Below, one piece after another: positions 21,141 through 44,321 of a DNA stretch of 57,403 bases. The stretch covers positions 1 through 57,403 of the IMG/VR virus record IMGVR_UViG_3300046170_000265. One strand, given 5' to 3'. Below the pieces are notes generated by a model. That model was not told where the DNA came from, ran no database searches, and saw nothing but the letters and a program-made list of their open reading frames with translations. The position numbers and the translations under genes were made by a program. Position 1 is the stretch's first letter. Each line of letters opens with the position of its first letter. This stretch comes from a virus (lineage: Duplodnaviria; Caudoviricetes).

Positions 21141-21316
21141 TGCTGCACCTCCGCCAGATCCCTGACAATCGCGCCGAGCTGGTAATAAGCGTCTGCGCTG
21201 CGGGTGTAATTGGTTGAAGACATTCTCTCTTGGTCACCACGACGATTGTTCATGGCCTCATCGAGGTCGTCCATTGCACGTTGAATTTCCTTAATTGCTC
21301 TCGTTAAGGGGTCCAT
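21128..21316 (-). CDS. Hypothetical protein
   Basis: Overlaps its neighbours in the operon; helical composition. Confidence 0.55.
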   Translation of the reverse strand: MDPLTRAIKEIQRAMDDLDEAMNNRRGDQERMSSTNYTRSADAYYQLGAIVRDLAEVQQWRS

Positions 21317-22360: not shown

Positions 22361-24011
22361 GATGTGGGTCTCCTTTCGTTTGAATTTGAACCTCGTCGTG
22401 AACCCATGCGATGATGGTTGCGTCGAGTTGTTGGTGTTTGATTTCTTCGTCAATGAGCTTGATCCAGGCTTTAGAGATCAAAGCTGCGGCTGATTGCAGT
22501 AAGACATTCAGGTGTGCATGACCTCGAACCGGCAGTTTCCTGCCGTCCAGGCCAATAAGATGGCCCCTGCTCTCGACAACAGCCTTGAGTTGCCGTGTCA
22601 GCTCTTTGAAGGCTGGGTTGCTTCTGTAAAAGGCGTCACGCAGCTGCCGGCCTTCTTTGGCCGAGCCGCCGACAACCTCACCAAGCTTGCTATCGCCACC
22701 GCCGAAAATGAGGCAATAAATGGCGGTCTTAGCCTGATTTCTGTCAGTTAGACCCATGTCGTGCATATTCTGCGTGTGAATATCGCCCTGCATGATCGTG
22801 TCAGCGTATTTGCCACCATCCTGTAGGAAATGTGCCAAACAGCGCAGCTCGATGCCTGAAAGATCAGATCCGACTAAGGTGAAACCATTTGGAACTGTAA
22901 ACAGCTGGCGCACCTCAAGCCCGTATTCGGCTCGAGTTGAGACAACTTGCTGGAGATTTGGTGCAAAGCTCGATGCTCGACCAGTTACGGTACCCATTGG
23001 ATTGATGGTGTGGCGTAACTTACCATCACCGTCGACCAACGCCATATAGGCGTATTTGCCTTCTGCCAGTGCGCCTAACCGCTTTTGCAGCATAAACGAC
23101 CGGCTCAGCTTTTGAGCTTCTGGGTAGCGCAGCTGCGCCAATATTGTTTCATCGATCTTGGCGTCGCCCTGAACTGTGAAATTCTTGGGCTTCCAGCCGT
23201 ACTTTTTGCGTAGGCAGTATTCAATGTGCTTGCGTGAATTTGGATTGAAGACGACTTCACGCTGTTTGATAAAAGGTACACCTTTTTCGTAACCTAACTT
23301 GCTGTTGTTAACCTTTGGTATGAACTCTTCTTCTAGATACCAATTAGGAAACAATGTCTGCAGCTCATCTTCGATCGTCGACTGTTCCAATGACAACTGC
23401 GCGTATAGCGAAGCTGCCTTGTCTGTGTCGAAAGTCCAACCGGCATTACCAATGCGGCTGCATAACTCAGCGACTGTATGCTCAAATCTAATTGCTTTGA
23501 ATGACCACTTGTGTGGGGCTAACGCCTCCCACAAAACGTGGTTAACCTTGACGTCCTGAAGACAATAGTCAGACATGGATTGCGTCCATTCTGACCAATC
23601 TGTTTGCTCACCAAAATCACCTTTGTGTATGCCAAGACGTACACCCCACGCCTTTAGGCTGTGACTTCCGTACATTTTCTTTGGGAAATCGTCAGCATGA
23701 CGTGGGGTTGCGTAGTCTTCATTCCTAAGATCGGAATGGATCAACCTGGACAGGACAAGTGTGTCTGTCAGCAGGATGTCGGCATGATTGAAGGTGGGAT
23801 AGACTTTTTCCAGCGCAGGGATATCAAAGGCCAAGATATTATGGCCAATCAGCTCCTTGGCTGACTGCAGCAACTCAACGCCAGCCTCGATCTCCCCTGG
23901 GTTAAATACCCAGGTTTGATCGGGGTTATCGGCGTTAACAGCTGCTATGCAGTGGATTTTGGTAAGGTGGTTCAGGAAGCCGTCAGTTTCGACATCGAAA
24001 ACCAAGCGCAT
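22248..24011 (-). CDS. Family A DNA polymerase (T7 gp5-like)
   Basis: Exonuclease motifs DVET, GHNILAFD, YCLQDV; polymerase motifs DLSGIELR, AKTAIY, VHDE. Confidence 0.96.
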   Translation of the reverse strand: MRLVFDVETDGFLNHLTKIHCIAAVNADNPDQTWVFNPGEIEAGVELLQSAKELIGHNILAFDIPALEKVYPTFNHADILLTDTLVLSRLIHSDLRNEDYATPRHADDFPKKMYGSHSLKAWGVRLGIHKGDFGEQTDWSEWTQSMSDYCLQDVKVNHVLWEALAPHKWSFKAIRFEHTVAELCSRIGNAGWTFDTDKAASLYAQLSLEQSTIEDELQTLFPNWYLEEEFIPKVNNSKLGYEKGVPFIKQREVVFNPNSRKHIEYCLRKKYGWKPKNFTVQGDAKIDETILAQLRYPEAQKLSRSFMLQKRLGALAEGKYAYMALVDGDGKLRHTINPMGTVTGRASSFAPNLQQVVSTRAEYGLEVRQLFTVPNGFTLVGSDLSGIELRCLAHFLQDGGKYADTIMQGDIHTQNMHDMGLTDRNQAKTAIYCLIFGGGDSKLGEVVGGSAKEGRQLRDAFYRSNPAFKELTRQLKAVVESRGHLIGLDGRKLPVRGHAHLNVLLQSAAALISKAWIKLIDEEIKHQQLDATIIAWVHDEVQIQTKGDPHHVGNLARRMAQEAGRYFNFSIPIDAEYSVGATWADTH

Positions 24012-24433
24012 TAGCGGTTGTCGCCATTTCCACGCAATTGGTCTCGTCTGTCTCGATCCTGCAGCTTTTCTAGGTTCAGCTCAGCAATTTCTTCGAGCTG
24101 GTAACCAATGTCGTTTGCTACAGCTGTGACATACCAAAGCACGTCACCAAGCTCTTTTGCGATTTCGTGGCGCATCCTGGAACGCATCTCGATCATCGGT
24201 TCTTCCAGTGCAGTGTCATCGTGTTCACCGTCACGGAAGTATTTCTTCAGTTTTTCTGCGACTTCGCCGGCTTCGCCAACTAGACCAAGCACTGGATAAA
24301 CCAATGCACCTGGGTAGATGGCTGTTTGCATTGCCGATACGGCATAATCCTCGAAAGTCATGGGAAACGTATCCCAGTCTTCGAAATTATCGTTATCAGC
24401 ATCGAAATCATCGAATAGGTCACGCATGGTCAT
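24011..24433 (-). CDS. mazG: MazG-like nucleotide pyrophosphohydrolase
   Basis: GLVGEAGEVAEKLKK, KELGDVLWY and C-terminal GNGDNR. Confidence 0.9.
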   Translation of the reverse strand: MTMRDLFDDFDADNDNFEDWDTFPMTFEDYAVSAMQTAIYPGALVYPVLGLVGEAGEVAEKLKKYFRDGEHDDTALEEPMIEMRSRMRHEIAKELGDVLWYVTAVANDIGYQLEEIAELNLEKLQDRDRRDQLRGNGDNR

Positions 24434-26139
24434 GGTAATTCTCCTTGTGGTTTGTACTCAGGTGAAACCAATTGATCGGGTTCATCATCTGAGCCGAGTA
24501 GATGTGTAAGTTCTTCTTCAAGCAGTCGACCGCTATCCCTGTTGAAGACTAGAGTTCCGGCGTTGCTTGAGGTTTGTCCGGTAAAGCGATTTTTCAGGAC
24601 CGCTAGGTGTCGAATGTCGCTGTCTGGTTCGTCACGATCGACGTTGAGTGCAATGACAGCATCACTTAGCTGACCAAGGCTTGCCGATCCTCTGAGATGG
24701 TTCAACCTGACCGGCTGACCACCACTTTCATGGCCTGAGTTCCCTTCGGGGCGACGGACGTGCGACACCAGGATTAAACCAATGCCCAGCTCCTGGACTA
24801 ATGTCCGCAGCTTAGTCATGGCGTAATCAATCAGTTGCCGCTCGTTACCAAAGCCCCCTGCTCCCATTTGGGTGCAAAGGATTGAGATGTGATCCAATAC
24901 GATCCAACGGACACCCAAGGCTTTCACCATGTAGGTAATCCGTTGACAGATCAGATCGACGTCTGAGCTACCAAAATGGTCATAGAGGTAGACAGGATGC
25001 CGGCCATCACCGAACAAGTCGTCGAAGGCTGCAACGATCTCTTCATCAGTTGCCAGGCTTCGATCGATCGTAATGTTCTTGCTCATGTGTGTGCCAACCA
25101 GGCCAAGCAAGGTCCGCTTGTTGCTTTCTTCAAGCATAATCAAGCCAACCTGCTCACCGGATTGGTGCAGGTGATAGCAAATCTCTTTCACGAAAGTTGA
25201 TTTCCCGATCCCAGAGCCAGCAGCAATTGTGACCAGCTCATACGGTCTTAACCCGTGCAGAATGTCATTTAGCACCGAGTAAGGGTATGTGATGGATGAG
25301 GCTGCATCATCCACAGCAATTGCGCTTCTGAGATCGGTAGCAGCCACGATCCCGTCAGGCCGATAGTCACGGGCCTGAAAGATCGCCTGAATTACTTCTG
25401 CTGATTTACCTTGGACCAGGCACTCATTGGCGTCCTTGCAGGGTAAATATGCAATTTTGCATCTACCGACAGGTAGTGTTTCTGCGACAGCCAGGGCCGC
25501 ATTTTGGCCGCTACTGTCCATATCGAACATCAGGATCACTTCCTCGAAGCCGAGAACGTAATCCCAATTGTCTTTAATTGCTTTGACAGCCGATGGTGCG
25601 CCATTAGGCAGCGACACCACTGGCCATCTGTTGTTTTGGATCTGTGAGACGCTCAGGCAGTCAATTTCACCTTCTGTGATGACCAGCTTTTTTCCGCTGC
25701 GCCATAGGTGTGACCCAAACAACGTGCTTTCACGTTGGTTGCCAATGATTGAGAACCTTTTGTCTTTGGTCCTGAGCTTCTGGGCAACAGGTTTGCCATG
25801 CTTGTCTCGATAGACAGCAATCTGCGTCTCTTGCCCGTTGTGTTTACCAACCAGGTATCCAAACTTTTTGCAGGTCGCCTCAGTTAATCCTCGAGCTGGT
25901 ATCGCTTTTGGGATGCCCGAGAGTAAGACTTCTTGTTTCGTTTGACCTTGGTTCGGTACTGGTTGCGGTTTGTCGCCAACTGGCGAGCCACCGGATTTCT
26001 CACTGCCACTATAGGTGGTACAGGAGAAACAGAACGTATGTCCGTCATCAAATACTCCATTTGCGTCTGATGAGCCGCAAGCATCACAGCTGGTATGAGT
26101 TACGAACTGTGATTGGCTCTCCTTTGGTATTGCTTGCAT
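24430..26139 (-). CDS. Primase/helicase (T7 gp4-like)
   Basis: Zn finger CDAC..CFSC, TOPRIM TEGEIDC and FDMD, Walker A AGSGIGKS, LDH, LRGS, KNRFTG; AGGAGAG RBS before MQAIP. Confidence 0.95.
   Translation of the reverse strand: MQAIPKESQSQFVTHTSCDACGSSDANGVFDDGHTFCFSCTTYSGSEKSGGSPVGDKPQPVPNQGQTKQEVLLSGIPKAIPARGLTEATCKKFGYLVGKHNGQETQIAVYRDKHGKPVAQKLRTKDKRFSIIGNQRESTLFGSHLWRSGKKLVITEGEIDCLSVSQIQNNRWPVVSLPNGAPSAVKAIKDNWDYVLGFEEVILMFDMDSSGQNAALAVAETLPVGRCKIAYLPCKDANECLVQGKSAEVIQAIFQARDYRPDGIVAATDLRSAIAVDDAASSITYPYSVLNDILHGLRPYELVTIAAGSGIGKSTFVKEICYHLHQSGEQVGLIMLEESNKRTLLGLVGTHMSKNITIDRSLATDEEIVAAFDDLFGDGRHPVYLYDHFGSSDVDLICQRITYMVKALGVRWIVLDHISILCTQMGAGGFGNERQLIDYAMTKLRTLVQELGIGLILVSHVRRPEGNSGHESGGQPVRLNHLRGSASLGQLSDAVIALNVDRDEPDSDIRHLAVLKNRFTGQTSSNAGTLVFNRDSGRLLEEELTHLLGSDDEPDQLVSPEYKPQGELP
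24459..24476 (-). promoter_or_regulatory. Putative phage RNAP promoter upstream of mazG and the polymerase
   Basis: ATCAATTGGTTTCACCTG variant of the repeated motif. Confidence 0.6.
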
Positions 26140-26165
26140 TGCTGTCTCTCCTGTAATTGCTTGAA

Positions 26166-26378
26166 CTAGGCCAGGCTGTAACGTGTGTAACGCTGGCCTA
26201 GGTTGTCTTTCTTCCATTCACTGATGATCTCAAATCCAGCTTCACGCAGGTCAGCGATCCGTCGCGTAAGCGATCTGATCCGGTAAAGATCATTTGCTTC
26301 GACAAACGTGATACTGCCCACGTCAATCAAGTGGTTCAGGACTAGTTGGTATTGGGATTGCCCCATGTATTTCTTCAT
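26166..26378 (-). CDS. Small winged-HTH protein
   Basis: SITFVEA..LYRIRSLTRRIADLREAG pattern; start uncertain. Confidence 0.7.
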   Translation of the reverse strand: MKKYMGQSQYQLVLNHLIDVGSITFVEANDLYRIRSLTRRIADLREAGFEIISEWKKDNLGQRYTRYSLA

Positions 26379-26806
26379 GCGTCTTCTCCTTCTGTTAGCC
26401 ATTCGGTTGGGATTGATTTGTTCGCGTACTCAAACCCATGCTTGTCGCACCACTGGGCATATGTAGTTGGGCTGCCTTTGTAGAGACGGGCATTTTGGTT
26501 TGAGAACACGAAACGAATGTCGATTTCAGGGTGCTGATCACGGATAAGCAGATGCTTTTGTCGGTCGTCGACTAGCCAGCGGCCCTTGGTTTCGACATAA
26601 AAAAAGCCGCCTGGCTTAGGCAGCTTAAAATCTGGGCGATAGGTGGATGATCGCTCCGGCCAGAGATAACTGATCTTATCCTGTTCGTATTGAACTATAA
26701 GACCAGCGTCCTCGATTTGGCGGGAAACACTGTCTTCTAAGCCAGAGCGGTAGCCATTCTTGATGGCCCGTTTTCGTAGCTTAGAAATTGTATGCTTGAC
26801 CTCCAT
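26375..26806 (-). CDS. Endonuclease I / Holliday junction resolvase (T7 gp3-like); start uncertain
   Basis: YRSGLE, YRPDF, VETKG, HLLIRDQHPEIDIRFVFSN. Confidence 0.92.
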   Translation of the reverse strand: MEVKHTISKLRKRAIKNGYRSGLEDSVSRQIEDAGLIVQYEQDKISYLWPERSSTYRPDFKLPKPGGFFYVETKGRWLVDDRQKHLLIRDQHPEIDIRFVFSNQNARLYKGSPTTYAQWCDKHGFEYANKSIPTEWLTEGEDA

Positions 26807-27350
26807 CACCTTCTGCAGCTGGTTGATTGTCGTTAGCTGCTGATAGGTTGTCATTGGCGGCTACAAAGCCACCCTCTTCAGCTGCGAATGAAACACTTGA
26901 GGTTTCACCTTGAGACAGCTCAACGATCTGGACGCCAGCAAGTTGCAGTGAAACACCTTTGTTTCCACCTGCGACATAGGGGTAAATCGTGCCAGCGAGT
27001 TTCAATGTAGAGCCGCCGAAGATTGGCGGAACATTGTTTTCGCTGATCAGGTTGCCCTGGCTGTCCATGATCTTTGGTCTGAATTTCGATTTGGTAACGA
27101 TAATCAGCTGGCCTGTATCCTCATCCGTTTTGAACGGGAGGCGTACATTTTGCGCTTCTTTGGTGCCAAATTCGTTGTTTGCTGCTTCCTGGACCGCTTT
27201 GATCAGGTCCGCAGCATCAGCTTTGTCCAGCTTCAAGTTGACCTTGAACTGGCCGTTGCTGTCGAATTGAAAGTCTGCCTTGTTTAACCAAGGGTACATT
27301 GCGATGCCTTTAGCGGTGCTAAAGGTCAGTTTCTTCTTCGTGTTTGCCAT
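26781..27350 (-). CDS. ssb: Single-stranded DNA-binding protein (T7 gp2.5-like)
   Basis: GIAMYPWL, GGSTLK, GVSLQLAGVQI, acidic tail ending in Phe; AAGGAG RBS. Confidence 0.85.
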   Translation of the reverse strand: MANTKKKLTFSTAKGIAMYPWLNKADFQFDSNGQFKVNLKLDKADAADLIKAVQEAANNEFGTKEAQNVRLPFKTDEDTGQLIIVTKSKFRPKIMDSQGNLISENNVPPIFGGSTLKLAGTIYPYVAGGNKGVSLQLAGVQIVELSQGETSSVSFAAEEGGFVAANDNLSAANDNQPAAEGDGGQAYNF

Positions 27351-27513
27351 TGTGTGAATAATCTCCTTTTTCAGTGGCTTTAAATGTTGGCTCACCTAAA
27401 TATTCCAGCGATAAGCCGAGCTGGTCTGCCTGTGCGAGCAGGTCTAGTGGTATTGGGTCGCCGCGCTGGCGATATATCTGTGCCAGCCCAAGCAACTCCT
27501 CGATGGGATGCAT
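27319..27513 (-). CDS. Hypothetical protein (64 aa)
   Basis: AAAGGA RBS before MHPIEELL, just downstream of a phage promoter. Confidence 0.55.
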   Translation of the reverse strand: MHPIEELLGLAQIYRQRGDPIPLDLLAQADQLGLSLEYLGEPTFKATEKGDYSHNGKHEEETDL

Positions 27514-27547
27514 TAAGTTTCCTTTTTCCTGTTGATAGGGTTGTCTG

Positions 27548-27565
27548 TAGGTGAAACCAATTAAT
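27548..27565 (-). promoter_or_regulatory. Putative phage RNAP promoter
   Basis: ATTAATTGGTTTCACCTA, repeated intergenic motif shaped like the T7 promoter TAATACGACTCACTATA. Confidence 0.8.
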
Positions 27566-27579
27566 GGCTCCAAACGCAC

Positions 27580-27604
27580 AAAAGGCGGCCCGAGAGCCGC
27601 CCTT
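27580..27604 (-). terminator. Intrinsic terminator after the RNAP gene, between two phage promoters
   Basis: GGCGGC/GCCGCC stem followed by TTTTGTGCGTTT on the minus strand. Confidence 0.7.
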
Positions 27605-27609
27605 GTACA

Positions 27610-27627
27610 TAGGTGAAACCAATTAAA
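27610..27627 (-). promoter_or_regulatory. Putative phage RNAP promoter
   Basis: TTTAATTGGTTTCACCTA copy of the motif. Confidence 0.8.
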
Positions 27628-27638
27628 TCGGTGTCACG

Positions 27639-30518
27639 TCATGTCATGAAGTAGTCGCTTTCGCGAACCTTCGTAATGTCCAGATCGCCTTTGGCCGGTA
27701 CTTCTGGCCATTTCACTATCCGGAGTTTCAAGGCATCCAGTTCAGCATTAAGACCCTCGAGCAACCCTTCATCCTCTTCATGTTCAATTAGTTCTTGAAG
27801 GTTGTGAATTTGCTCCTTGATCTCGAGGCTGTCTGGATCTGGGTGTCTTGCTTTGCACTGCTCGAGAAGGTCGCTGTATAGACAATATCCGTCATACATC
27901 TCGACCATTGCGTCTCTGGCAGCATCCCGCATCACCTCAGCATTACCACAGGTAGTGGCATAGCTGTCGTGAACGACCATAAGATCAGTAACCCCATGAT
28001 CAGCGCAGCGTAAGGCAGTTAACATCAACAATGTGCTATCCATCGAATGGATTATGTTGGGACTTACTGCACTGACGCTTTTATTAGGATCAATGCCGGG
28101 CATTGTTTTGGTGTAGCTCATCAAGCCCCGAGATTTGATAGCCTCGATATCATGGCTGTAAAGAAACACCCGACGCCTTGCCGACTTATTGTTCCGATAG
28201 TATTGATGCACCGGAAAGTTGAGTTTTGGCGTTTTGAAAGTGAGATGTAGATCGGCGTCAACCATGATCTTGGCGCAAGCTTGGAAAAATTCCATGCCAT
28301 CTTTGGCTGACTTGATCACACTTTCGATTGCGTCTTGACTGATACCAGCTAAGTAATGAGATGCCTGGTAACCGCCATCTTCAGGGAATGGATGCTTCTC
28401 ACGTTCACCAGCGCGAACCTCAAGATCCATTTCGTCCATCCAGTCTTTTTTGAACTGCTGGGCGAAGCCATACTTGCGGCTCGAATAAGCCCAAACCATG
28501 GCCGGTCTCTTGATGACACTCCGGTTTAGGTACTTTTTGCCTTTTGGATTTTCATCAGTCGGCTCGACCTCATAGGACAACAGTACTCTTGCAATGTCGA
28601 TTTCTTGATCACGCTTCAATCTTCTGTGTGAAGCAGTCTTTTTATAATCACGCTTTGCCTTGCGTTTCCTTTTCTCGAGAGCGTCCATTTCATCTAGATC
28701 GTCAGCTTTTTCAGCCATGATCCTTTGATATGCTTTGTGCGCTTCCCGATCATTGTCATTCGCAGGGTCAAGCTCTTGATTTGCAAGTTTCTCAGCCTTG
28801 TCAGCTTCGATCATTTCTTCTGCAACCACGAGACAAGCCTTGTACAGGTCGTTAGGCTTATCTTCTGAGCCTTTGACCAGGTTAACTAGCAATCCGTCAT
28901 CTTCGTTCAAGCTAGCAGCAGCGTAATGCTGGATGCCGGATTGAGTTGCATCGACGGCAACAGGTAAACCAGACCAATGGTCCTTGCCTTCTTGCTGGGC
29001 AACCATGTATTCAGCCAAGTCACGGCAAGCAGCTAAGAACTGGAATGGATCGTCAGCCTTGCTCCAGAAATCAAATGACGCCTTGTAATCGATGCCGACG
29101 TTGACCACTTCTTCAAGGTTTTCTTCCACCCATTTGATCCGAGTGTCGTAGCTCTCTTTATCCAAGCCATAGGTGTTTGAAACCTGCAGAAGGATCCATG
29201 CTGAATTTTCCTCTGTTACCTTCGTCTTGTTGGCAAATAGAAACATTGCCCTCAAGAAATCTGTATTGTGGTGGCCAAAATCGCTGACGTGATAGACACG
29301 CCCTCGCCGGTCCCAATTGTGTGGCATCCAGAACTGATCATATTGAGCAAGCTTCCTAGCTTCATTCAATGTACGGCGGATCTTTGACCGGTTGGCCCGA
29401 GCTTGCCTGTTGACGGCTTTGCATCGAGTTAGATTTCGCATATGAGCGATTTGATCATCTTTATCGAGGTCATCGTAGTTCACGCCTTCGTCGAGCTTTG
29501 GAACCTCAACAGTTTTGGTGTTTGGAAACTTTTTGACCAAACGGCCCTTGCCCGTCTTGCGGACCCAATCGACAGCATCGACCACAAAGTCATTAACGGT
29601 GTAAGGCACCTGTTGCAGGAGGTTTAAAGCCTCAACAGCCTTGTCTAAGCTGCCATCTCGCAATCCTGCATCAAGATCCTTACGCTGCTCTGGGCCAGCG
29701 TGTTTGACCATTGGCGTCATGATTGCCAGGCGAGGTGTTATGTATGGACCGATTTGATCCAAACCCCATGGTCTTGGCATTACATTCATTGGTGCAAGGT
29801 ATGGCGACATACGGTCAAGATCAGCAAACTTTTCTTCGATCTCAGCTTCTACCTCGGGACGCAGGATCATGAATTTTTCTGGGAAGTCTTTCGTCTCATC
29901 CGCTAGATCTTTGTGCGTCATGAACACGTCTTTACAAGCAGCTTCGACCACTGACAGTAAAAATGAGCCGACAGTCTGTTCTAAACCGCCATCATCATCT
30001 TCCCACTTCTCGAAGGTAAAGCCTCTTTTGGCTGCCTGACGCAGGACGTAATCTTGACGTTTTTCAACCTTGTCACTTTGCAACGTGGCGTTTTGTGCCA
30101 GCCGCTTTGCTAGGCGGTCACCAGCACGATTTGCTTGAAGTCTGTGTTCAAAATCCAGACACTTGATCGCCTGGCCGACCCTGTTTGCCAGCGTATTGTA
30201 AGTCCATTCTTTCTCATGGCCATCAAGACACTGCATGAAAGCGACATAAGCGACATCAATCTGTGGTAGTTCCGCAAGTGGCTCAAGCCATTTGGCGTTT
30301 TGACCGCGGTTAGCACGGGTTTGCTCAGACTGGCTTACAATCTCATCCATGATGGGCTGAATGTATTGTTCGATTAGTTTGACAGATACAACACTGGCAG
30401 ACATATCAAGGCTCTGGCGGCGGTCTCTAGAGCGAGCTTCGCCCCGATCAACTATGTTGACCTGCTCATGCTCCAAAGCATCTTTTCTGGTCCTGGGTGT
30501 ATTGTCGTTTGCTACCAT
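27639..30518 (-). CDS. Single-subunit T7-like RNA polymerase (959 aa)
   Basis: DRRGRVY, PFQFLA, motif A DATQSGIQHY, motif B RSVIKRPAMVWAY, PNIIHSMDS, motif C VHDSY. Confidence 0.96.
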   Translation of the reverse strand: MVANDNTPRTRKDALEHEQVNIVDRGEARSRDRRQSLDMSASVVSVKLIEQYIQPIMDEIVSQSEQTRANRGQNAKWLEPLAELPQIDVAYVAFMQCLDGHEKEWTYNTLANRVGQAIKCLDFEHRLQANRAGDRLAKRLAQNATLQSDKVEKRQDYVLRQAAKRGFTFEKWEDDDGGLEQTVGSFLLSVVEAACKDVFMTHKDLADETKDFPEKFMILRPEVEAEIEEKFADLDRMSPYLAPMNVMPRPWGLDQIGPYITPRLAIMTPMVKHAGPEQRKDLDAGLRDGSLDKAVEALNLLQQVPYTVNDFVVDAVDWVRKTGKGRLVKKFPNTKTVEVPKLDEGVNYDDLDKDDQIAHMRNLTRCKAVNRQARANRSKIRRTLNEARKLAQYDQFWMPHNWDRRGRVYHVSDFGHHNTDFLRAMFLFANKTKVTEENSAWILLQVSNTYGLDKESYDTRIKWVEENLEEVVNVGIDYKASFDFWSKADDPFQFLAACRDLAEYMVAQQEGKDHWSGLPVAVDATQSGIQHYAAASLNEDDGLLVNLVKGSEDKPNDLYKACLVVAEEMIEADKAEKLANQELDPANDNDREAHKAYQRIMAEKADDLDEMDALEKRKRKAKRDYKKTASHRRLKRDQEIDIARVLLSYEVEPTDENPKGKKYLNRSVIKRPAMVWAYSSRKYGFAQQFKKDWMDEMDLEVRAGEREKHPFPEDGGYQASHYLAGISQDAIESVIKSAKDGMEFFQACAKIMVDADLHLTFKTPKLNFPVHQYYRNNKSARRRVFLYSHDIEAIKSRGLMSYTKTMPGIDPNKSVSAVSPNIIHSMDSTLLMLTALRCADHGVTDLMVVHDSYATTCGNAEVMRDAARDAMVEMYDGYCLYSDLLEQCKARHPDPDSLEIKEQIHNLQELIEHEEDEGLLEGLNAELDALKLRIVKWPEVPAKGDLDITKVRESDYFMT

Positions 30519-30552
30519 TAAACTCTCCTATTGTGACTAAAGTACTAAAGAT

Positions 30553-30577
30553 ATAGGGGGGTGAATACCCCCCATAG
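30553..30577 (-). terminator. GC-rich hairpin just upstream of the RNAP gene (terminator or attenuator)
   Basis: GGGGGGT-GAAT-ACCCCCC stem with only a weak U tract. Confidence 0.45.
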
Positions 30578-30585
30578 ACACAAGC

Positions 30586-30768
30586 CTAAGCAGCTTGGGT
30601 CTTGTTGTTGTCGTTAGCTGCATTAGCCAACAGGTCGCTAAGGTTTACCCGAGGTGTCTGGTGCTTCCATGGTGTTACTCCGGTTAGCACCTGATGCATC
30701 ATTTCTTCAGCATCTTGGTTGTAGTTTTGGACCTGGGTACCTTTGTTGTTGTCATTTAACATCATCAT
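30586..30768 (-). CDS. Small early protein ending in ssrA-tag-like AANDNNKTQAA
   Basis: AGGAG RBS; lies downstream of the phage promoter at 30811-30828. Confidence 0.7.
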   Translation of the reverse strand: MMMLNDNNKGTQVQNYNQDAEEMMHQVLTGVTPWKHQTPRVNLSDLLANAANDNNKTQAA

Positions 30769-30810
30769 TCTCCTACCTTGGTTGAACTAAAGACCGGAAC
30801 TGGCCGTATA

Positions 30811-30828
30811 AAGGTGAAACCAATTAAT
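30811..30828 (-). promoter_or_regulatory. Putative phage RNAP promoter upstream of the RNAP gene
   Basis: ATTAATTGGTTTCACCTT followed by TATA. Confidence 0.8.
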
Positions 30829-30863
30829 TCACTAAGGAAATCAATGGCTTCACCTTCTGGTCT

Positions 30864-31202
30864 TTAGGCTGCTTTTGACCAGCCTGTCAGGACCGTGTGG
30901 GGCAAGGTCGTCGTATGAGATGCTCGCCAATCGAAATTCAGATGATCCATCCGAGCGAATTGACGTCTGGCATGGATGTTTAACAATGGCTCGACGTCTG
31001 GGAACCGCTGAACCTGAAGAGCCATCCAGGCGCATAGCAACGCAACGCCGTCAAACTCCATGCGTTCGAATACGGCATCGCCTTCGCCAAAGCGGATGAA
31101 GACGGCATATTCGATTTCGTCCTGTGTGAACGAAAATTCATAGGGCCCATCGACACCAAGGTGATGAGTTACAAAATCGATAAATGTTTTTTCGGTTTTC
31201 AT
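30864..31202 (-). CDS. Hypothetical early protein (112 aa, ends KAA)
   Basis: AAAGGAG RBS; downstream of the promoter at 31246-31263. Confidence 0.7.
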   Translation of the reverse strand: MKTEKTFIDFVTHHLGVDGPYEFSFTQDEIEYAVFIRFGEGDAVFERMEFDGVALLCAWMALQVQRFPDVEPLLNIHARRQFARMDHLNFDWRASHTTTLPHTVLTGWSKAA

Positions 31203-31245
31203 AGTAAATGCTCCTTTTCACCAGAACCCGGGATGGGTTCGTATA

Positions 31246-31263
31246 TAGGTGAAACCAATTAAT
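31246..31263 (-). promoter_or_regulatory. Putative phage RNAP promoter at the head of the early region
   Basis: ATTAATTGGTTTCACCTA followed by TATA and a GAACCC/GGGTTC hairpin. Confidence 0.8.
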
Positions 31264-31474: not shown

Positions 31475-32446
31475 TTATATTGACAGTGCGGACACAGCCC
31501 CTGCCCGTGCAGATGCGTCGCCATGATAGTACTTCTTTGTCGTAGCGACGCTGGAATGACCCAGCTGCTCAGCCACTGTCAATGAGTTGACCTTGGCCCG
31601 TGCCATATTGGTTGCAGCATAATGCCTTGTAGCGTGAAACTTGAACCAGGTGTCGTTGCCATGGCCCATAAAGTCCTTCACATCGTTCCAGCGGTCATAA
31701 AAGCGTCTGTGGGTGAACTCACGGCCAATGTTAGCCCGAAGCCACTGAGCGGCTTCCCATGCGCCATCAGCGACCAGGCTTACCCAGCGACCTTTGCTGG
31801 TCTTTGTAACTTGTGCCGGAAGCCAAACTTCCTTGGCATCATCGTTCCATTCAATAATGTCTAACGGTAACGCTACGATTTCGCCCTGCCTCATACCTGT
31901 AAGACAACCCAGCTTAATCATGTATGACACCCACTGGTCGCCATTGCGATCATGCAGCTCGATCATCTGACGTACCTGGTCTTTGGTGAAGGCACGGGTA
32001 TTTGGCTCAGCTTGCTTTAACAAGCCTACCCTTGGACGATCAGTCATGATCTGCAGTTCCTCGACTGCGAACCGGAAGCAAGCTGATACAGCAGACAGAT
32101 GCCGGTTGATTGTCGAATCAGTCATATCTGTATGTTGCTGGAGATAATTGCGATATGCGATACAGTCAGCAGCCGTGATCTGGTTCATCGGCTTCATGCC
32201 GTAGTCTTTGAAATCTGCGAATCGGGACACCTGCATCATACAGTCACGACGGTGCTTGAAGGCTCCCCACATATCACGCTGGTGCTTGTGAGCGAACATA
32301 AGGATATTAGAGCGGCTGCAGTCGAATTTGGTGTCGTCAATAGCAGCTGGAGCTGGCTCAGGGCGACTGTCGATTACATTGTTGGTACTGATGATTTCAT
32401 CTGAAGTGGGGTTAGAAAAGTCATCGAAAAGGTTAAATTGGTCCAT
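31475..32446 (-). CDS. int: Tyrosine integrase
   Basis: Catalytic residues TGMRQGE, TKTSK, FHATRH, LGHS and TKKYY; adjacent to the att site. Confidence 0.95.
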   Translation of the reverse strand: MDQFNLFDDFSNPTSDEIISTNNVIDSRPEPAPAAIDDTKFDCSRSNILMFAHKHQRDMWGAFKHRRDCMMQVSRFADFKDYGMKPMNQITAADCIAYRNYLQQHTDMTDSTINRHLSAVSACFRFAVEELQIMTDRPRVGLLKQAEPNTRAFTKDQVRQMIELHDRNGDQWVSYMIKLGCLTGMRQGEIVALPLDIIEWNDDAKEVWLPAQVTKTSKGRWVSLVADGAWEAAQWLRANIGREFTHRRFYDRWNDVKDFMGHGNDTWFKFHATRHYAATNMARAKVNSLTVAEQLGHSSVATTKKYYHGDASARAGAVSALSI

Positions 32447-32523
32447 CTTACGGTCTCCTTAGAGTTACATAAGATGAAACGGGGGGTGTGTCGCTTGACT
32501 ACCGCCGATTTCTAGCAGTCATT

Positions 32524-32575
32524 CAAGCGACTGTTAATCGCTTGGCCGGCGGTTCGAATCCGTCCCGGGGAGCCA
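32524..32575 (+). pseudogene. 3' half of tRNA-Asn(GTT), att core region
   Basis: Anticodon arm AGCGA-CTGTTAA-TCGCT, T arm GGCGG-TTCGAAT-CCGTC, acceptor strand CCGGGGA-G-CCA; no D arm or 5' acceptor strand upstream. Confidence 0.9.
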
Positions 32576-32587
32576 ACTCTCTAAGTT

Positions 32588-32600
32588 TATCAACAACTTA
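32588..32600 (+). promoter_or_regulatory. IHF binding site next to att
   Basis: TATCAACAACTTA matches the consensus WATCAANNNNTTR exactly. Confidence 0.65.
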
Positions 32601-32764
32601 GATGACATATCCCAAAACTTTAAATTCTTGCCTTTGGTAAAGCGATTGTTGCCCTCAACCTTCGCTTGTCCCCTTATATATAAGCTTTTCCTAGCTTAAT
32701 TACAACTGCTGGGAAACCGGTTCTGCTGGGATACTGTTGGTACATCAGGGGTTCTGCAAAGCCG

Positions 32765-32830
32765 TGTATGTCGCTTGACTGAGGAAAGCGATTGCCAGTC
32801 GCTTGGCCTAAAAGGGTAAAGCGACATACA
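32765..32830. repeat. Nested inverted repeats containing an att-core-like site
   Basis: TGTATGTCGCTT (32765-76) and AAGCGACATACA (32819-30) enclose AAGCGA-TTGCCAG-TCGCTT (32786-32804). Confidence 0.8.
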
Positions 32831-32854
32831 AAAAGGGCTATTTTTCACGTTTTC

Positions 32855-32883
32855 TTGTCTCGTAAAGATACTTTGGTTAGACT
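32855..32883 (+). promoter_or_regulatory. Putative sigma70 promoter of the 774-aa gene
   Basis: TTGTCT-17 nt-TAGACT, 36 nt before the ATG. Confidence 0.5.
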
Positions 32884-32919
32884 TTTGAATAACGCGATAA
32901 AGACACCAAAAGAGCTGCC

Positions 32920-35244
32920 ATGAAAATCCCACAACAAATGACTAAGCGACAAAAAGACAGGCTTACGGTTCTGAATTCAAAAGGCATCACCGCTCTTCAA
33001 ATAGCCAAAATACTTGAGCTTCCTTTAGTGTTGGTTGAGGAAGAAATTGAAACGCGAAAGCAAAATCTTTTGAAGAAAAGATGGACGAAAGACCAGTCAA
33101 ATGAAGCGTTAGACTTATATGTCAAAAACGTGTCTCTAACTGAAATTGCAAACCTAACTGGTAAAACTAGAGTGCAGATAGCAAGGCACTTCAGAGATAT
33201 TAGGGATGACTGGGTTAACGAAGGCACAAAATACAACTATTTGAATGTTGATTTGAGAGTGAAATTAGCAGCTAAAATTGAACGAAGGGAAAACACTGAC
33301 AAGCGGCCAATAAGAATGGCTAGAGCGAGGCTCCCTGACAAAATACGGAGCAAGCAGCTAGCTGGTCTCGCAGAAACACTCGCTTATAAAGAAAATGTGC
33401 TGCTTGATGAATGGTGGCAGTTTGGCGTCCTAAACAGCGTTGAGGATGACCGCCTTAGCCTGACTGCAATCTCGAAGGACAACAACAGGGTTACATTAAT
33501 CAAGAAGTACACGCCGAACTGGAAAGAAGTTCTGCTGAAACTGAAAGGCTTGATGGGTGAATTTGTTTCTGTCCGTGTAATTCAAAATTACTTACCAGTT
33601 GTTAATGCCGGAGCAGGAACTAAGAAAGATGTTGTCTACGAACCACGGATGGTTGACGTAACGGCATCTGAAGGCATCATGAGCCTCGCAAAGTCCTTCC
33701 CAAGTGACACCCGAAACCAGTCTTTCATTGGAAGGTATAAGTGGTTGCGCTTTGGCGAGTTTGAAGCCAAGTCAACCAGCGAACACATTCTCATTGGAAA
33801 TGTTGATGGTCGGGTCATGGCTTTCCGAAAGGGCAGCATCAACAGCGTTCTAGAGCAACGTCTCACGGACACTTTAGATATGGCTGAAGGTCAATCTATC
33901 TTGGTTTGTGTAGACCAAAAAAATCCAAAGCCTGACGGTGTTTTAAGCGTGTTTGTTGACGCACACATCGAAGAGGAAGGCATTGAGACTTACAACGAAG
34001 ACTACAATACAATTGTAGAAACGATTGCTCGCACAAAGGATGAAGCTGCTGAGGCTAACTTGACAGTGCAAAAAAAGCACAAAGAGATACAACAGCAGCT
34101 ACTAGAGAAAGAAGTGCAACATACAAAACAGATTACAGAACTGAAGTTTGAGTTCGAGCGTGAAACACAAGAAGTACAAGCACAGATAAAGGAACAAACA
34201 GGTGCTTTTAGACGCTTAGAAGCAGAATTACAAAGAGAGCTGCTAGATTACAATGAACAAGAGAGGTTTCTGCGCGACACAAAAGAAGGGCTTCAACAGT
34301 ACAAGGTAGGTGTTCTAGCAGCGGCTGCAGACCAAACAGGGTCGGGCAGCACTTTTCAAATGAAAGGGCTGAAGGTAATACAAGGCGAAGAGGCTCAGTG
34401 GCATGATTTCAATGAGGCAATCAAGGCATTTGAGGGGAGTGGAGGTGAAGAAGCACAAGAGCTTTACAAAGAAATCCAAGACCTAAAAAGGGAAGTGTTA
34501 AAAGCACATAAGAATGCAGCTGCTACTTCAAATACCTCTGAAGAAGAGGAAGGGTTTGAGCCACCAGAACCAGATTACATCCTCAACCCTGAAGCAGACC
34601 TCTCGCTTTTTGATGAAAAGCAACCAGACCCGGACAGCCCAATGATGGCAATGATGCGAGAGATGATGGCAGAAGTGCAGAGTTTAAAAAGCTCGCAACA
34701 AAGTTTTATTGAAGCATCAGCAATGACAGAGTTTGAAGTTCAAGAGTTACGTGACTATTCCCGTGCAGAAGACGAAGAGTTGAGTACAGACAACGCAAAA
34801 ACAGAAGCTGAACACAAAGACATACTGGAGAATGTGAGAGAGTTTGTCGGAAAGCCACCAAGGCAACTAAAAGTGTACGTTGGTCACGCTCGGAATACAC
34901 TATGTCTTCGCGCCGGTATCGACCTTACAAGGGAAAAACCTGACAACAGGATTGATGTTCAGTTTACCAAACACATTGGTAAATCAACGTTTCTGGTTCA
35001 CTTCCCCAAATACAATCATGACGCAATGCTATCCATTGTTCGAGACTCGAAAGACAAAAACGATTTTGCAGTAAAATCATGCCTTCATCTTGATGGTGAA
35101 AGGTGGAAAGAAATTGAACAGGAAGTCACAGGACAAGGTGGTAAGCGTCTGACAGGCAAAAAGCCCAAACAGTGGTTAGCATATCGCAAACAGATAATTG
35201 CAAAGCTAGAAGCACCTAAAGCGAAAAAAAAGGCCAGAGGATAA
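32920..35244 (+). CDS. Uncharacterised 774-aa accessory protein: tandem HTH, duplicated domain, coiled coil, C-terminal domain
   Basis: Only long plus-strand ORF in the window, AT-rich, between att and the endolysin. Confidence 0.85.
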   Translation: MKIPQQMTKRQKDRLTVLNSKGITALQIAKILELPLVLVEEEIETRKQNLLKKRWTKDQSNEALDLYVKNVSLTEIANLTGKTRVQIARHFRDIRDDWVNEGTKYNYLNVDLRVKLAAKIERRENTDKRPIRMARARLPDKIRSKQLAGLAETLAYKENVLLDEWWQFGVLNSVEDDRLSLTAISKDNNRVTLIKKYTPNWKEVLLKLKGLMGEFVSVRVIQNYLPVVNAGAGTKKDVVYEPRMVDVTASEGIMSLAKSFPSDTRNQSFIGRYKWLRFGEFEAKSTSEHILIGNVDGRVMAFRKGSINSVLEQRLTDTLDMAEGQSILVCVDQKNPKPDGVLSVFVDAHIEEEGIETYNEDYNTIVETIARTKDEAAEANLTVQKKHKEIQQQLLEKEVQHTKQITELKFEFERETQEVQAQIKEQTGAFRRLEAELQRELLDYNEQERFLRDTKEGLQQYKVGVLAAAADQTGSGSTFQMKGLKVIQGEEAQWHDFNEAIKAFEGSGGEEAQELYKEIQDLKREVLKAHKNAAATSNTSEEEEGFEPPEPDYILNPEADLSLFDEKQPDPDSPMMAMMREMMAEVQSLKSSQQSFIEASAMTEFEVQELRDYSRAEDEELSTDNAKTEAEHKDILENVREFVGKPPRQLKVYVGHARNTLCLRAGIDLTREKPDNRIDVQFTKHIGKSTFLVHFPKYNHDAMLSIVRDSKDKNDFAVKSCLHLDGERWKEIEQEVTGQGGKRLTGKKPKQWLAYRKQIIAKLEAPKAKKKARG

Positions 35245-35248
35245 ACCT

Positions 35249-35758
35249 CTAGCCCATAGCTAACGCTTGTTTTCTTGTCTCGTCATTTCTTCTTAACCAC
35301 CCTCGCCCAAACACATCAAAGTTAGACAGTGAGCGATAGAACTCTTCCCGATACACCGCAATTCTGTTGATGATATTTGCCACTTCATGCTTCTTAACGA
35401 GCATAAGGGTCAGTGGCCCGACAGAACCGTCTTCTTCGGCCTCTACAGCCTTCTGGAGCGTCCTTGCGGCTCTTCCAGTACCAGCGTTAACAGCGAAGTC
35501 AAAGACCGCCCAGTCAAGCCCTGAAGCTAGGTCTTGGCAGCGGCATCTGTTCCAGTAATTACGCCGATAGATTGGCTCAACGTCACCCTTCGTAAGAGCC
35601 TTCATGACCTCTTCAGTAGCATCGCCACCATAGAACTCATCATAGACCCGTTTTGTTACCCCGAGGTTGGTTTTGCCTCCGCTGTCGCGACTATCGTCCG
35701 AATACCCACCTTCGTGGGCTAGCAGCATCGTCATGCACACATCAAAGTTCTGGTTCAT
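35249..35758 (-). CDS. Endolysin, glycoside hydrolase family 108 with peptidoglycan-binding domain
   Basis: HEGGY, DSGGKTNLGVT, FDFAVNAG and FGRGWLRR motifs. Confidence 0.92.
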   Translation of the reverse strand: MNQNFDVCMTMLLAHEGGYSDDSRDSGGKTNLGVTKRVYDEFYGGDATEEVMKALTKGDVEPIYRRNYWNRCRCQDLASGLDWAVFDFAVNAGTGRAARTLQKAVEAEEDGSVGPLTLMLVKKHEVANIINRIAVYREEFYRSLSNFDVFGRGWLRRNDETRKQALAMG

Positions 35759-43288: not shown

Positions 43289-44321
43289 TTATGTTTCCCA
43301 ACGCTTCAAAAGAACTTCAGCAATATCGTCGATGTCACTTCCTGCAGACTGTGCCAGCTTTGCCTCTGCATCTTGGATGCGCTTGGCTTTAAGCTGGGCG
43401 TTATTCGCCGGTGACTTATTAGATTTAAGCACCTTCTTGGCGACACGCTTTTTCTTTGTGGTGGTGACTTGCTTGGCTTGGTCGTAAAGACGAGCCTTGT
43501 TCAGCACCTTGATAACCACAGGGTCTACGTAGTTGTTGACTTGTTCTTCGGGCAATCCAAGCCCGATAGCATATGACCTGATATCGTCATAAAGCTGATT
43601 GTTCCAATCCGGCACATCTTGCTCCAGCACCTTTACAGCCTCTTTGGCTGCATCTTGCATTGCTGCTTGTTGCTGTTGCTTTAGTCCGTCATAGAAGCTG
43701 GCTTGCTTCTTCTTTGATAAATTTCAAATCATTGTGTGCGTCCTGAGCTTCTTTGCGCAGTTGCGTGAAGTCAGCGTCATCCAAGTTCTTTGAAGCTAAA
43801 ATCATGTCAACTTCTGAATATGGTTGGTAGCGTTCTTCAGCCTTCTGCACCATGCGCTGCAGGATAGCATCGGTTTTGCCGATATTGTCTTCAGCCTCTT
43901 TGCGTTGAGCTGCTACTTCTTGAGACTTTCTGGTAAGGCTTGCTTCTTGTCCGTAAAGACGCTTCAAATCTTTGATGGATGCCTGTTTGGTTTCGCCTTC
44001 GACTGAGATTTCAATGAGAGTGTCATCGTCAACTTCGACAGTTTCCTCTTCATCATCTTCTTCTTGGTCTTCGGCTTCTTCCTCTTCTTCGTCAGGGTCT
44101 ATCTCTTCATCTTCGTCATCTAGTTCGACTTCTTCAATCGCCTCATCTTCCTGCTCTTGGACATCTTTAGTCTCGTCATTGTCCTGAGCAGTAGCCTCTT
44201 CCGTAGCTTGTTCTGATGGCTGGTCACCAGCGTCTTCCCATCGCTTCAAAAGGGCGTCAGCCGCTTCGTTAACATCTAACGCTTGCGGCCTCTGTTCTTG
44301 AGATGTTTGCACGTTATCCAT
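43289..44321 (-). CDS. Capsid scaffolding protein B, frameshift near 43690
   Basis: ORFs 43689-44360 and 43289-43660 together match scaffold A. Confidence 0.8.

Follow-up and report, generated by a model that had tools for sequence, protein, structure and literature searches.

A 774-residue protein beside the attP core of a marine T7-like podovirus represents the long version of a phage protein family not described before

The window considered here is the whole 57,403-nt stretch of IMG/VR record IMGVR_UViG_3300046170_000265 (Caudoviricetes), in which a gene for a 774-aa protein lies between an integrase with its attachment site and an endolysin. We call this gene the long form, and a shorter paralogue elsewhere in the record the short form. 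The surroundings of the long-form gene are as follows.

31475-32446, minus strand: tyrosine integrase, divergent from the long form (PHROG 1, E 2.6e-42; Pfam Phage_integrase, E 5.6e-19)
32525-32576, plus strand: attP core, equal to the last 52 nt (3' end) of a tRNA-Asn(GTT) gene, in the same orientation as the long-form gene
32577-32919, plus strand: right (P') arm together with the stretch that precedes the long-form gene, where AAGCGA / TCGCTT sites cluster
32920-35244, plus strand: long-form gene, an ORF of 774 aa with its stop codon in the loop of a hairpin common to the convergent endolysin
35231-35255, unstranded: hairpin with both stop codons (terminator scan and sequence), a U-run terminator for the endolysin strand
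35249-35758, minus strand: endolysin (GH108), convergent with the long form, with 4 bp between the ORF ends

The long form is the sole long ORF on the plus strand, all other phage genes lying on the opposite strand, its GC content is 43.3% against 48.5% for the window, and it starts 344 bp downstream of the attP core; thus, the initial annotation was right in describing it as AT-rich, antisense to the phage and beside att. A search of 5.8 billion proteins with the 774-aa protein, in which 8000 candidates were scored, gave E ≤ 0.001 for 4 of the 8000, and its full-length relatives are 100%, 66%, 34% and 32% identical to it. A full-library profile search at E ≤ 0.001 brought the number to 191 proteins, with 8 full-length long-form clusters (7 further ones came from this search), about 40 short forms, and relatives of 500-830 aa with intermediate architectures. 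The 774-codon frame is kept at full length in 10 other proteins at 32-68% identity, and conservation follows the domains in an alignment of 11 long forms (A5), which was built separately from an alignment of 37 short forms (A6). An independent contig is 99.8% identical, and the long-form stretch recurs almost unchanged in 17 seawater runs drawn from at least 12 studies. We take the gene for the 774-aa protein to be real and accessory, and its product to be the long form of a phage protein family that had not been described.

An exact-pattern search with the first 51 nt of the attP core (all but the last base) found it in 69 genome stretches, and ARAGORN placed full tRNA-Asn genes at the genomic core matches, in SAR116-type alphaproteobacteria. 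The 52-bp core is identical (100%) in a second phage contig (L003), where the long form overlaps a convergent membrane-protein ORF. The order from core to long form, convergent with lysis genes, is found in two of two independent phages, the only two long-form contexts known. In one locus (L060), the core with 27 bp of the right arm adjoins a full tRNA-Asn, another (L057) is an empty site with 391 bp from the core to the endolysin end, a third (L054) is likewise empty, and related prophage remnants occupy the same tRNA without the long-form gene. Nearness to att, an orientation of its own, deviating GC and patchy presence are what is expected of a prophage-end accessory gene, or moron. Between the integrase and the long form (32447-32919), we counted 9 AAGCGA/TCGCTT hexamers against 0.26 expected (P 1e-11), the equivalent region of L003 holds 7 AAGCGA hexamers against 0.19 expected, and the alignment of both phages shows conserved inverted-repeat blocks just upstream of the long-form gene. 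The AAGCGA sites equal in sequence the anticodon-stem arms of the att core and match integrase core-type half-sites; their being integrase binding sites is an explanation at least as good as their being a target of the long form. A 112-aa ORF at 30864-31202 has no family match.

The record itself needs careful reading. Its two late regions are 65-67% identical at an offset of 42,235 bp, which led us to reject the window as one 57-kb genome; two related phages have probably been joined in the record at a common attP core, so that a single genome may not carry both paralogues. In runs such as X2 and X4, the phage with the long form is ten times as abundant as the other one. The statement of the initial annotation that the family is present twice stands for two ORFs in the record and is doubtful for a single genome. 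Among the Logan contigs aligned with the stretch, none bridges the att core because the contigs break there; contig joints with short sides (20-50 nt) were disregarded and uncovered parts were left uninterpreted. Both long-form contigs could also be mis-joined on the integrase side of the common core. A metagenome scan returned L002 and L003 only, an IMG/VR scan with alignment A7 yielded 2 loci, IMG/VR scans with A1, A5, A8 and P0165 returned none, and tblastn of the long form, its paralogue, P0021, P0047 and P0166 against 50,697 phage records gave no match. No integrated copy was found in a genome-contig scan with A3, and none of 192 SAR116-order genomes matches the long form outside its HTH part.

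The domain layout of the long form, on the plus strand throughout, is as follows.

32941-33219, plus strand: pair of HTH units of three helices each (residues 8-53 and 55-100)
33400-33594, plus strand: OB fold 1 (residues 161-225), from model topology, hhalign to the short-form OB and Foldseek tandem-OB matches
33595-33729, plus strand: inter-OB segment (residues 226-270), the best-conserved part of the long forms
33730-33975, plus strand: OB fold 2 (residues 271-352)
33985-34335, plus strand: long coiled-coil helix (residues 356-472), from the model and VIA coiled-coil matches
34336-34845, plus strand: acidic linker and helices, partly disordered (residues 473-642; pI 4.3)
34846-35241, plus strand: basic C-terminal domain (CTD) common to the short form (residues 643-774; pI 10.1)

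The relationship between the two forms is marginal in pairwise comparison and strong between families. BLASTP aligned the CTDs at E 0.004 (27% over 139 aa) and, collinear with this, the N-terminal modules at E 0.019 (26% over 65 aa), and early small profiles gave E 3.8e-4 at a probability of 36%, while hhalign of A5 against A6 gave 99.5% for the CTD (E 2.1e-22, 120 columns). Thus, the proposed homology of the two ORFs through the CTD is borne out, as is a modular, uncharacterised family that comes in a long and a short form. The repeated N-terminal module of the initial annotation is, according to the models, an OB fold, with a five-stranded closed barrel and a helix between strands 3 and 4. 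Its copies in the short form and at the first position in the long form are solid by profile comparison (97.7%, E 2.4e-12), and the claim of two copies in the long protein has weaker sequence evidence for the second (73%, E 3e-5 against the short-form OB; 28%, E 6e-4 between the two long-form copies) plus a like topology of both in the model (beta1-3/helix/beta4-5). The inter-OB segment has a mean pairwise identity of 0.57 with invariant residues in A5 and a model pLDDT below 50, the coiled coil is modelled as one unbroken helix at 358-472, and the acidic linker has low pLDDT with modelled helices at 493-536 and 574-642. The long-form CTD is invariant at K651, V652, G655, H656, N659, R664, H685, F691, G741, K742 and R743. 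As alignments and models show, an OB/coiled-coil/CTD core is extended in the long form by another OB fold and by two HTH units of homeodomain/GcrA type.

The best Foldseek matches of the long-form model are all tandem-OB nucleic-acid binders (4dni, E 5.3e-4; Teb1 AB, E 9.8e-4), with HIN-200, ModE, LEF-3, Thermus SSB and Cdc13 among the further top tandem-OB matches, and fold searches with both forms place SSB, PriB, RPA, Stn1 and aminoacyl-tRNA-synthetase anticodon binders nearest. However, the sugar-binding B subunits of AB5 toxins score equal to SSB-type OBs, and nucleic-acid binding by the OB folds is therefore a prediction only. Both OB and CTD are basic (pI 9-10) and one relative is an RNase H-OB fusion; this fusion, the basic pI and conserved aromatic residues may hint at single-strand DNA or RNA binding by the OB folds. 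The two HTH-like units of the initial annotation are supported as three-helix folds in the model, and the proposed likeness to the GcrA N-terminus holds in that the fold superposes on the solved GcrA DNA-binding domain; homeodomains, Tc3 and resolvase HTHs score the same, and Pfam GcrA (PF07750) gave no row for the whole 774-aa protein at E ≤ 1 or for residues 1-110 at E ≤ 0.1. HTH_23 and HTH_38, below threshold, are the only Pfam HTH matches in long forms P0012-16 and P0022, and profile searches of PDB sequences gave 2lvs_A, in the HTH part, as the sole match. The short form is without HTH, which indicates that recognition of a DNA sequence is not the core activity of the family.

The position of the short form and its parts is as follows.

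17335-18312, minus strand: short-form paralogue of 325 aa, with OB fold at 17977-18216, helical dimerisation segment at 17725-17976 and CTD at 17338-17724

Its open frame extends over 17335-18375 (minus strand, 346 aa). However, seven of seven homologues start at the internal methionine, giving 325-333 aa, and one environmental contig carries a 1-base insertion at 18324, within the 21-codon extension, so that 17335-18312 is the likelier gene. The AF2 model of the short form (pLDDT 88.2, pTM 0.65) found no Foldseek match at E ≤ 0.001 in PDB or BFVD. Homodimer prediction gave an ipSAE of 0.66 against 0.00 for the best control (20 of 30 proteins whose solved structure is a pair of one chain attain this mark, as does 1 of 23 with a single-chain structure), and the runs had at least 72% of contacts in common, a partner pLDDT of at least 79 and an interface at residues 120-150 with same-residue heptad contacts. 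The short form is thus predicted to pair via a parallel coiled coil. In the record, ThyX lies on one side of it and, on the other, a promoter-like site with a tail gene after it, and the order RNR/ThyX, short form, tail gene is found in three of three loci of T7-like marine phages. A conserved core gene of these phages, the short form closes their lytic DNA-metabolism module, which indicates that the basic activity of the family serves the phage and is not primarily that of a toxin.

The initial annotation also gave the long form a candidate promoter of its own, expression in the lysogen and a possible role in defence or exclusion. The promoter is not confirmed, as a sigma-70 scan found no site upstream of the gene. 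A phage-promoter-like early-region motif has 6 sites, all on the minus strand at 17177-31263 and none near the long-form gene, and this absence says little because the gene appears to come from the other phage. For expression in the lysogen, the single hint is a contig of 216 nt, assembled from an RNA library, that matches 33662-33877. PADLOC-DB 2.0 matched 0 of 17 family members at its default E ≤ 0.001, its sole rows being weak ones in the coiled-coil range (E 0.0013 and 0.0081), and no partner or immunity gene adjoins the long form. Pfam and PHROGs gave nothing above cut-offs for the long and the short protein, and in PHROGs searches of 20 relatives, HTH and zinc-finger parts alone matched. 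Searches of the literature on SAR116 phages, integrases and Autographiviridae yielded nothing on the family.

We consider that the long form is best read as an accessory nucleic-acid-binding gene of temperate T7-like podoviruses of SAR116-type hosts that acts as an exclusion or immunity factor, to which we give a probability of about 35%. Integration into tRNA-Asn would leave the gene immediately 3' of the restored tRNA gene, at one end of the prophage, where host RNA polymerase would transcribe it independently of the phage transcription programme. The HTH pair would place the protein on double-stranded DNA, possibly on its own upstream AAGCGA cluster, the OB and CTD module would bind whatever nucleic acid the core short form binds, and exclusion or immunity may arise because the protein competes with the short form that incoming relatives bring, or pairs with it unproductively. 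The more specific proposal of a lysogeny/immunity factor of temperate T7-like phages, seated at the attL end, transcribed by the host polymerase and anchored by its HTH units, whose OB and CTD module is a copy from the essential class-II protein of the phage itself, and that blocks the step of this protein by paralogue interference and so silences the prophage or shuts out superinfecting relatives, seems improbable to us.

A different role of the long form, in line with the initial annotation, would be that of a sensor-effector abortive-infection toxin whose CTD acts as an RNase that needs no metal and resembles barnase, EndoU, colicins or RelE. In the short-form AF2 model, the CTD consists of a strand, a helix with GH...R, a four-strand meander and two helices, and both forms conserve His, Arg, Lys, Glu and Tyr residues (H215, R223, K232, R233, Y254, E293 and K302 in short-form numbering); this predicted topology and these residues are compatible with the BECR fold, and a coiled coil between a binding module and the CTD recalls colicin-type layouts. 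Fold searches of the short-form model (Foldseek, VIA) were taken up by its OB domain. Against the RNase reading, no family or solved structure in Pfam, PHROGs, PADLOC or PDB accounts for the CTD, and no immunity or antitoxin ORF lies beside either form in the record and L003, nor any co-directional small ORF by the long form. The short form, moreover, is a core gene of the phage's own lytic module. LPD39 (PF18858) was suggested for the CTD by the ESM Atlas (0.93; the whole short-form paralogue scores at most 0.80) and was not confirmed, as its Pfam model matched neither the six frames of the window (E ≤ 10) nor the 37 short forms (E ≤ 1). Overall, we regard the RNase reading as quite unlikely. 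Like the predicted CTD, T4 RegB and other BECR RNases are alpha+beta domains of small size in which His and basic residues are conserved, but no match to them was obtained. The cofactor of RegB is the OB-rich ribosomal protein S1, a separate protein, whereas the OB module of the present family is fused to the CTD.

The long form may also be a regulator of lysogeny or integration, with the HTH pair bound to the repeats that separate the att core from the gene, that represses the divergent early operon of integrase and RNA polymerase or serves the intasome as an architectural or directionality factor. Such a repressor would be of a kind that temperate T7-like phages appear to lack. Two N-terminal HTH units, divergence from the integrase over about 400-470 bp holding 9 (record) and 7 (L003) AAGCGA sites, the inverted-repeat blocks and the fact that we recognised nothing else resembling a repressor gene near the integrase speak for this, but a protein of 774 aa with two OBs, a coiled coil and an extra domain is unlike any known repressor or Xis, remnants sit at the same tRNA without the gene, the sites match integrase core-type half-sites, integration parts the gene from the integrase promoter side, and the short form has no HTH, so that we regard a regulator as rather doubtful. 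We are similarly hesitant about a plain lytic-cycle protein for replication, recombination or RNA processing, e.g., an accessory single-strand binder, of which the long form would be a variant moved to another place, equipped with additional DNA-binding heads and required for the growth of its phage. The slot of the short form as last gene of a DNA-metabolism block, the nearest OB folds, the RNase H-OB fusion, the intermediate architectures and the close packing of gene and endolysin, whose stops lie in a single hairpin, favour it, whereas the opposite strand, the low GC, the place next to att, the absence from related remnants and the rarity of long forms (8 against about 40 short-form clusters) do not. 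That the ORF is non-functional or mis-called at an assembly junction is hardly credible: the record does seem to be two phages joined at the att core, with several structural genes split, but the full-length conservation, the independent contig and the recurrence among seawater runs described above all speak against it.

The long form has partial parallels in known systems. P2 old/tin and the lambda b-region genes are prophage-end accessory genes; they resemble the long form in att-side position, opposite strand, lower GC and patchiness, and have no sequence or family relation to it. ModE-type regulators have, like the long form, an HTH head followed by two OB-type (Mop) barrels (Foldseek 1b9m_B, E 5.5e-3), but the match is weak and no better than to other tandem-OB proteins, there is no sequence relation, and ModE has neither coiled coil nor basic CTD. 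RPA/Teb1, Thermus SSB, baculovirus LEF-3, HIN-200, Stn1 and PriB share the OB fold, tandem arrangement and a basic surface. GcrA, homeodomain and Myb proteins share the three-helix DNA-binding domain, while the rest of GcrA is absent from the long form. CI/Cro-type repressors are HTH proteins divergent from the early operon, with operators between; the long form has such a layout and clustered sites, but these sites equal integrase core half-sites, and its size and domains differ from those of known repressors.

The short form defines a widespread family that lies outside Pfam and PHROGs and has no solved-structure relative by sequence search, and its fixed slot in the marine podovirus replication module and its predicted dimer come with an activity that is easy to assay. 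T7-like phages with an integrase belong to the most common viruses of the sea. One survey reports an integrase in 625 of 1143 populations (PMC12361551), and how such phages could remain silent as prophages therefore needs explaining. A DNA-binding gene on the opposite strand that comes to lie beside a host tRNA after integration would be a concrete candidate for this silence.

The 774-aa protein encoded at 32920-35244 (long form) and the 325-aa protein encoded on the minus strand at 17335-18312 (short form) are members of one family, as the initial annotation had supposed from an alignment by eye. Pairwise BLAST alone is insufficient here, being marginal (E 0.004 and 0.019), and the family alignments are decisive. 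The long-form alignment held 11 sequences (the window protein, a 742-aa homologue encoded by metagenome contig L003, and protein clusters P0002-4, P0012-16, and P0022), and the short-form alignment held 37, namely the paralogue from the window with 4 of its close relatives, plus 32 profile matches of 266-358 aa with a C-terminal match, with shorter fragments and fusion proteins excluded. Compared with each other, they matched over the C-terminal domain with 99.5% probability (E 2.1e-22), and the short-form N-terminal module matched the first copy in the long form at 97.7% (E 2.4e-12) and the second at 73% (E 3e-5); thus, the proposed paralogy was right. The two long-form copies matched one another at 28% (E 6e-4).

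Searching 1.84 billion representative proteins with the family profile gave 191 matches at E<=0.001, of which 38 reached E<=1e-10 and 13 reached E<=1e-30. Among the 150 matches listed, 8 were full-length long forms (P0002, P0004, P0012-16, P0022), about 40 were short forms of 266-358 aa, and a few were intermediates of 500-830 aa, while the remainder aligned to the helix-turn-helix (HTH) head only. The 774-aa frame recurs in a 100% cluster and then in full-length relatives at 66%, 34%, and 32% identity, and seawater data contain near-identical copies of its stretch in 17 runs spanning at least 12 studies; that the long form is an artefact is scarcely credible. For the short form, 7 close relatives were found, all 325-333 aa long. 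Its 21-codon extension to 346 aa (18313-18375), which overlaps the ThyX stop, is missing in all 7 homologues and is broken by a 1-base insertion in one environmental contig, and a start at the 325-aa position therefore seems likelier.

The structure model of the long form was poor overall (pLDDT 57.5, pTM 0.21, 5 sequences) and informative locally, and that of the short form was good (pLDDT 88.2, pTM 0.65, 37 sequences).

Predicted parts of the two proteins
Long form, residues 9-53 and 57-99: two three-helix units (pLDDT ~80)
Long form, residues 162-222 and 273-350: two barrels, strands 1-3, helix, strands 4-5
Long form, residues 358-472: single 115-residue helix
Long form, thereafter: acidic disordered stretch, more helices, low-confidence C-terminal domain
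Short form, residues 34-111: OB fold
Short form, residues 126-195: three helices
Short form, C-terminal domain: strand 198-202, helix 215-224 with conserved GH...R, four strands 233-282, helices 286-296 and 308-324

The two HTH-like units noticed earlier thus have predicted counterparts in the three-helix units. The suggested likeness to GcrA held at the level of fold, the head being GcrA/homeodomain-like, but not as sequence-level membership. The same applies to the middle, which is folded like tandem-OB binders, and to ModE, with which the long form shares the order of an HTH followed by two OBs. Fold searches with the short-form model matched the OB domain only, with Stn1 as the best Foldseek match (2e-2), and the BFVD search gave no match; these OB matches are at the common-fold level, where sugar-binding and nucleic-acid-binding OBs are indistinguishable. 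Conservation among the long forms was highest in the OB modules, the segment between them, and the C-terminal domain. Basic parts are the short-form OB, the first long-form OB, and the C-terminal domain of either form, in contrast to the acidic helical parts. A short-form homodimer was predicted with an ipSAE of 0.66 vs 0.00 for the best control, a mark that 20 of 30 proteins with solved one-chain pairs attained, as did 1 of 23 solved as single chains. The dimer runs had at least 72% of contacts in common, with a partner pLDDT of at least 79. Because the interface (residues 120-150) has same-residue contacts between copies at heptad spacing, the short form would, by the model's own confidence, pair as a parallel two-stranded coiled coil.

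Pfam, PHROGs, and PADLOC gave no match for the OB or C-terminal parts of the window proteins and their relatives. The HTH head alone finds relatives among multi-HTH proteins, which match HTH_23, HTH_38, GcrA, and Myb, and a profile search of PDB sequences returned 2lvs_A only, for the head. LPD39, an ESM Atlas lead for the C-terminal domain, was not confirmed on follow-up. Several clusters differ in architecture.

Variant and fused architectures
P0084: two OBs without HTH
P0040, P0051, P0060, P0072: different N-terminal regions
P0079: treble-clef zinc finger (DUF4379) with the family C-terminal domain
P0095: RNase H with the OB module
P0034: ABC1-kinase fragment with the family C-terminal domain (may be a chimera)

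The long form fits no known defence, repressor, or toxin family, and the family is new, composed of known kinds of parts and one domain without a known family.

The window is an entire IMG/VR virus record of 57,403 bases, with nearly all genes on the minus strand and the gene content of a T7-like podovirus.

Gene order in the reading direction
31475-32446, minus: tyrosine integrase, first gene
27639-30518, minus: single-subunit RNA polymerase, after the integrase
Then, in order: gp2.5-like SSB, endonuclease, primase/helicase, MazG, DNA polymerase, exonuclease, kinase, ribonucleotide reductase, ThyX
After ThyX: 325/346-aa ORF, then structural genes (first late region)
57146 down to endolysin at 35249-35758: second, incomplete late region (structural, terminase, portal, scaffold, capsid, fibre, and lysis genes)

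Against cultured phages, the RNA polymerase reaches only ~25% identity. For a 112-aa ORF between it and the integrase (30864-31202, minus), neither PHROGs nor Pfam gave a match; its location would be apt for a small regulatory gene. DNA identity between the two late regions is only 65-67%, with an offset of 42,235 bp, and the record therefore appears to hold parts of two related ~42-kb phages, A (left, 1-32524) and B (right, 32577-57403). Both phages have a split portal, and phage B also has a split scaffold and a split large terminase (2556-4486, 43289-44360, 44625-46662, 46662-48240), through either frameshift errors or decay of prophage genes. When contigs from three seawater DNA runs were mapped on the window, the right part was about tenfold deeper than the left in two: X2 had a depth of ~11 on the long-form gene and the B lysis side and 0-1 on phage A, X4 had ~6 on the gene, 3-4 on phage B, and ~0 on phage A, and X1 had 4-8 on the gene, B, and A alike. 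Run contigs break inside the att core (32552-32553), as does contig L002, and at a shared hairpin (35255-35263). These depths and breaks place the long-form gene with phage B. The A-B adjacency stems from either a mis-join at the 52-bp core common to both phages or a tandem double lysogen, which makes the CheckV completeness of 100% misleading. The initial annotation had the family present twice; two homologous forms are indeed in the record, but the paralogue of phage A and the 774-aa protein of phage B may not share one genome. The layout divergent from the integrase depends on contigs in which the integrase side may be mis-joined, and the linkage from core to right arm, long-form gene, and lysis genes is secure.

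The 52-bp core (32525-32576), between the integrase and the 774-aa gene, is 100% identical in L003, which is otherwise unalignable, and corresponds to the 3' part of tRNA-Asn(GTT), with the anticodon arm, the T arm, and the acceptor end. An exact match to its first 51 bases (without the last base) occurs in 69 genome stretches, of which 31 have SAR116 or Puniceispirill- in their titles and the others are other Alphaproteobacteria or unclassified Proteobacteria; ARAGORN found complete tRNA-Asn genes at 4 of 4 core loci checked. Downstream of this tRNA in SAR116 loci L054, L047, and L057/58 lie convergent endolysin C-terminal fragments, with two cores and two fragments in L057/58; L060 holds the core and 27 bp of right arm (89% identical), and L063 holds 34 bp of left arm and the core (86% identical). 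From these traces, such phages integrate at the tRNA-Asn of SAR116-type hosts. The remnants 3' of tRNA-Asn in these five loci include an integrase fragment, and about 10 other contigs end within ~10 bases of the core match; together, these suggest a variable integration hot spot. After integration, the arm bearing the 774-aa gene adjoins the rebuilt tRNA. The core-to-endolysin-end distance is 391 bp in L057 vs 2,649 bp in the window, so relatives without the long-form gene exist.

The long form sits 344 bp downstream of the core (264 bp in L003), in the same direction as the tRNA, and is the sole long plus-strand gene in the window, with a GC content of 43.3% vs 48.5% for the window as a whole; its earlier description as AT-rich, antisense to the phage, and beside att was accurate. 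It runs head-on to the lysis genes, with its stop and that of the endolysin within one hairpin; the L003 homologue overlaps an ORF for a small membrane protein that runs convergent to it. A 216-nt contig from a metatranscriptome library matches 33662-33877 exactly and is possibly DNA carry-over. The short form lies between ribonucleotide reductase (with ThyX in the window) and a tail gene in all three contexts (window, L073, L074), and therefore ends the DNA-metabolism block. A 17-nt motif, a candidate promoter of the phage's own RNA polymerase, has 6 copies vs 0.18 expected, all in the same orientation and in or beside gaps between early/middle long ORFs (17177-17193, 24460-24476, 27549-27565, 27611-27627, 30812-30828, 31247-31263), one of them between the short form and the tail gene; no copy occurs in the phage B part of the window. 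That the long form is a plain lytic-cycle gene seems unlikely to us.

The hexamer AAGCGA/TCGCTT is strongly clustered, at 9 sites in the 473 bp of 32447-32919 vs 0.26 expected, and at 7 sites in L003 1698-2101 vs 0.19 expected. Most copies form inverted pairs on the right arm, including one core-like AAGCGA-N7-TCGCTT (32786-32804), and two blocks of the core-to-gene region are conserved between the window and L003. The hexamer sites are likely bound by the integrase or a regulator; since both anticodon-stem arms within the core are also made of this hexamer, and the integrase consists of a SAM-like core-binding domain and a catalytic domain only, they may be integrase sites rather than HTH-pair operators. 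A role of the long form as a lysogeny or integration regulator is likewise unlikely. More doubtful still is the RNase-toxin effector first suggested by the H-x7-R-x-GI pattern.

The family combines a predicted dimer-forming coiled coil with an OB fold and a basic conserved domain, and has a constant place in the replication block of marine T7-like phages. The long form is less common, carries an additional OB and a DNA-binding head, and lies at the variable end next to att. We tentatively favour, at a probability of about 35%, that the family binds a nucleic acid and that the host polymerase, rather than the phage's own programme, accounts for expression of the long form, which would serve exclusion, immunity, or regulation. 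The long form would then be an accessory function that puts the core module of the phage to a new use.
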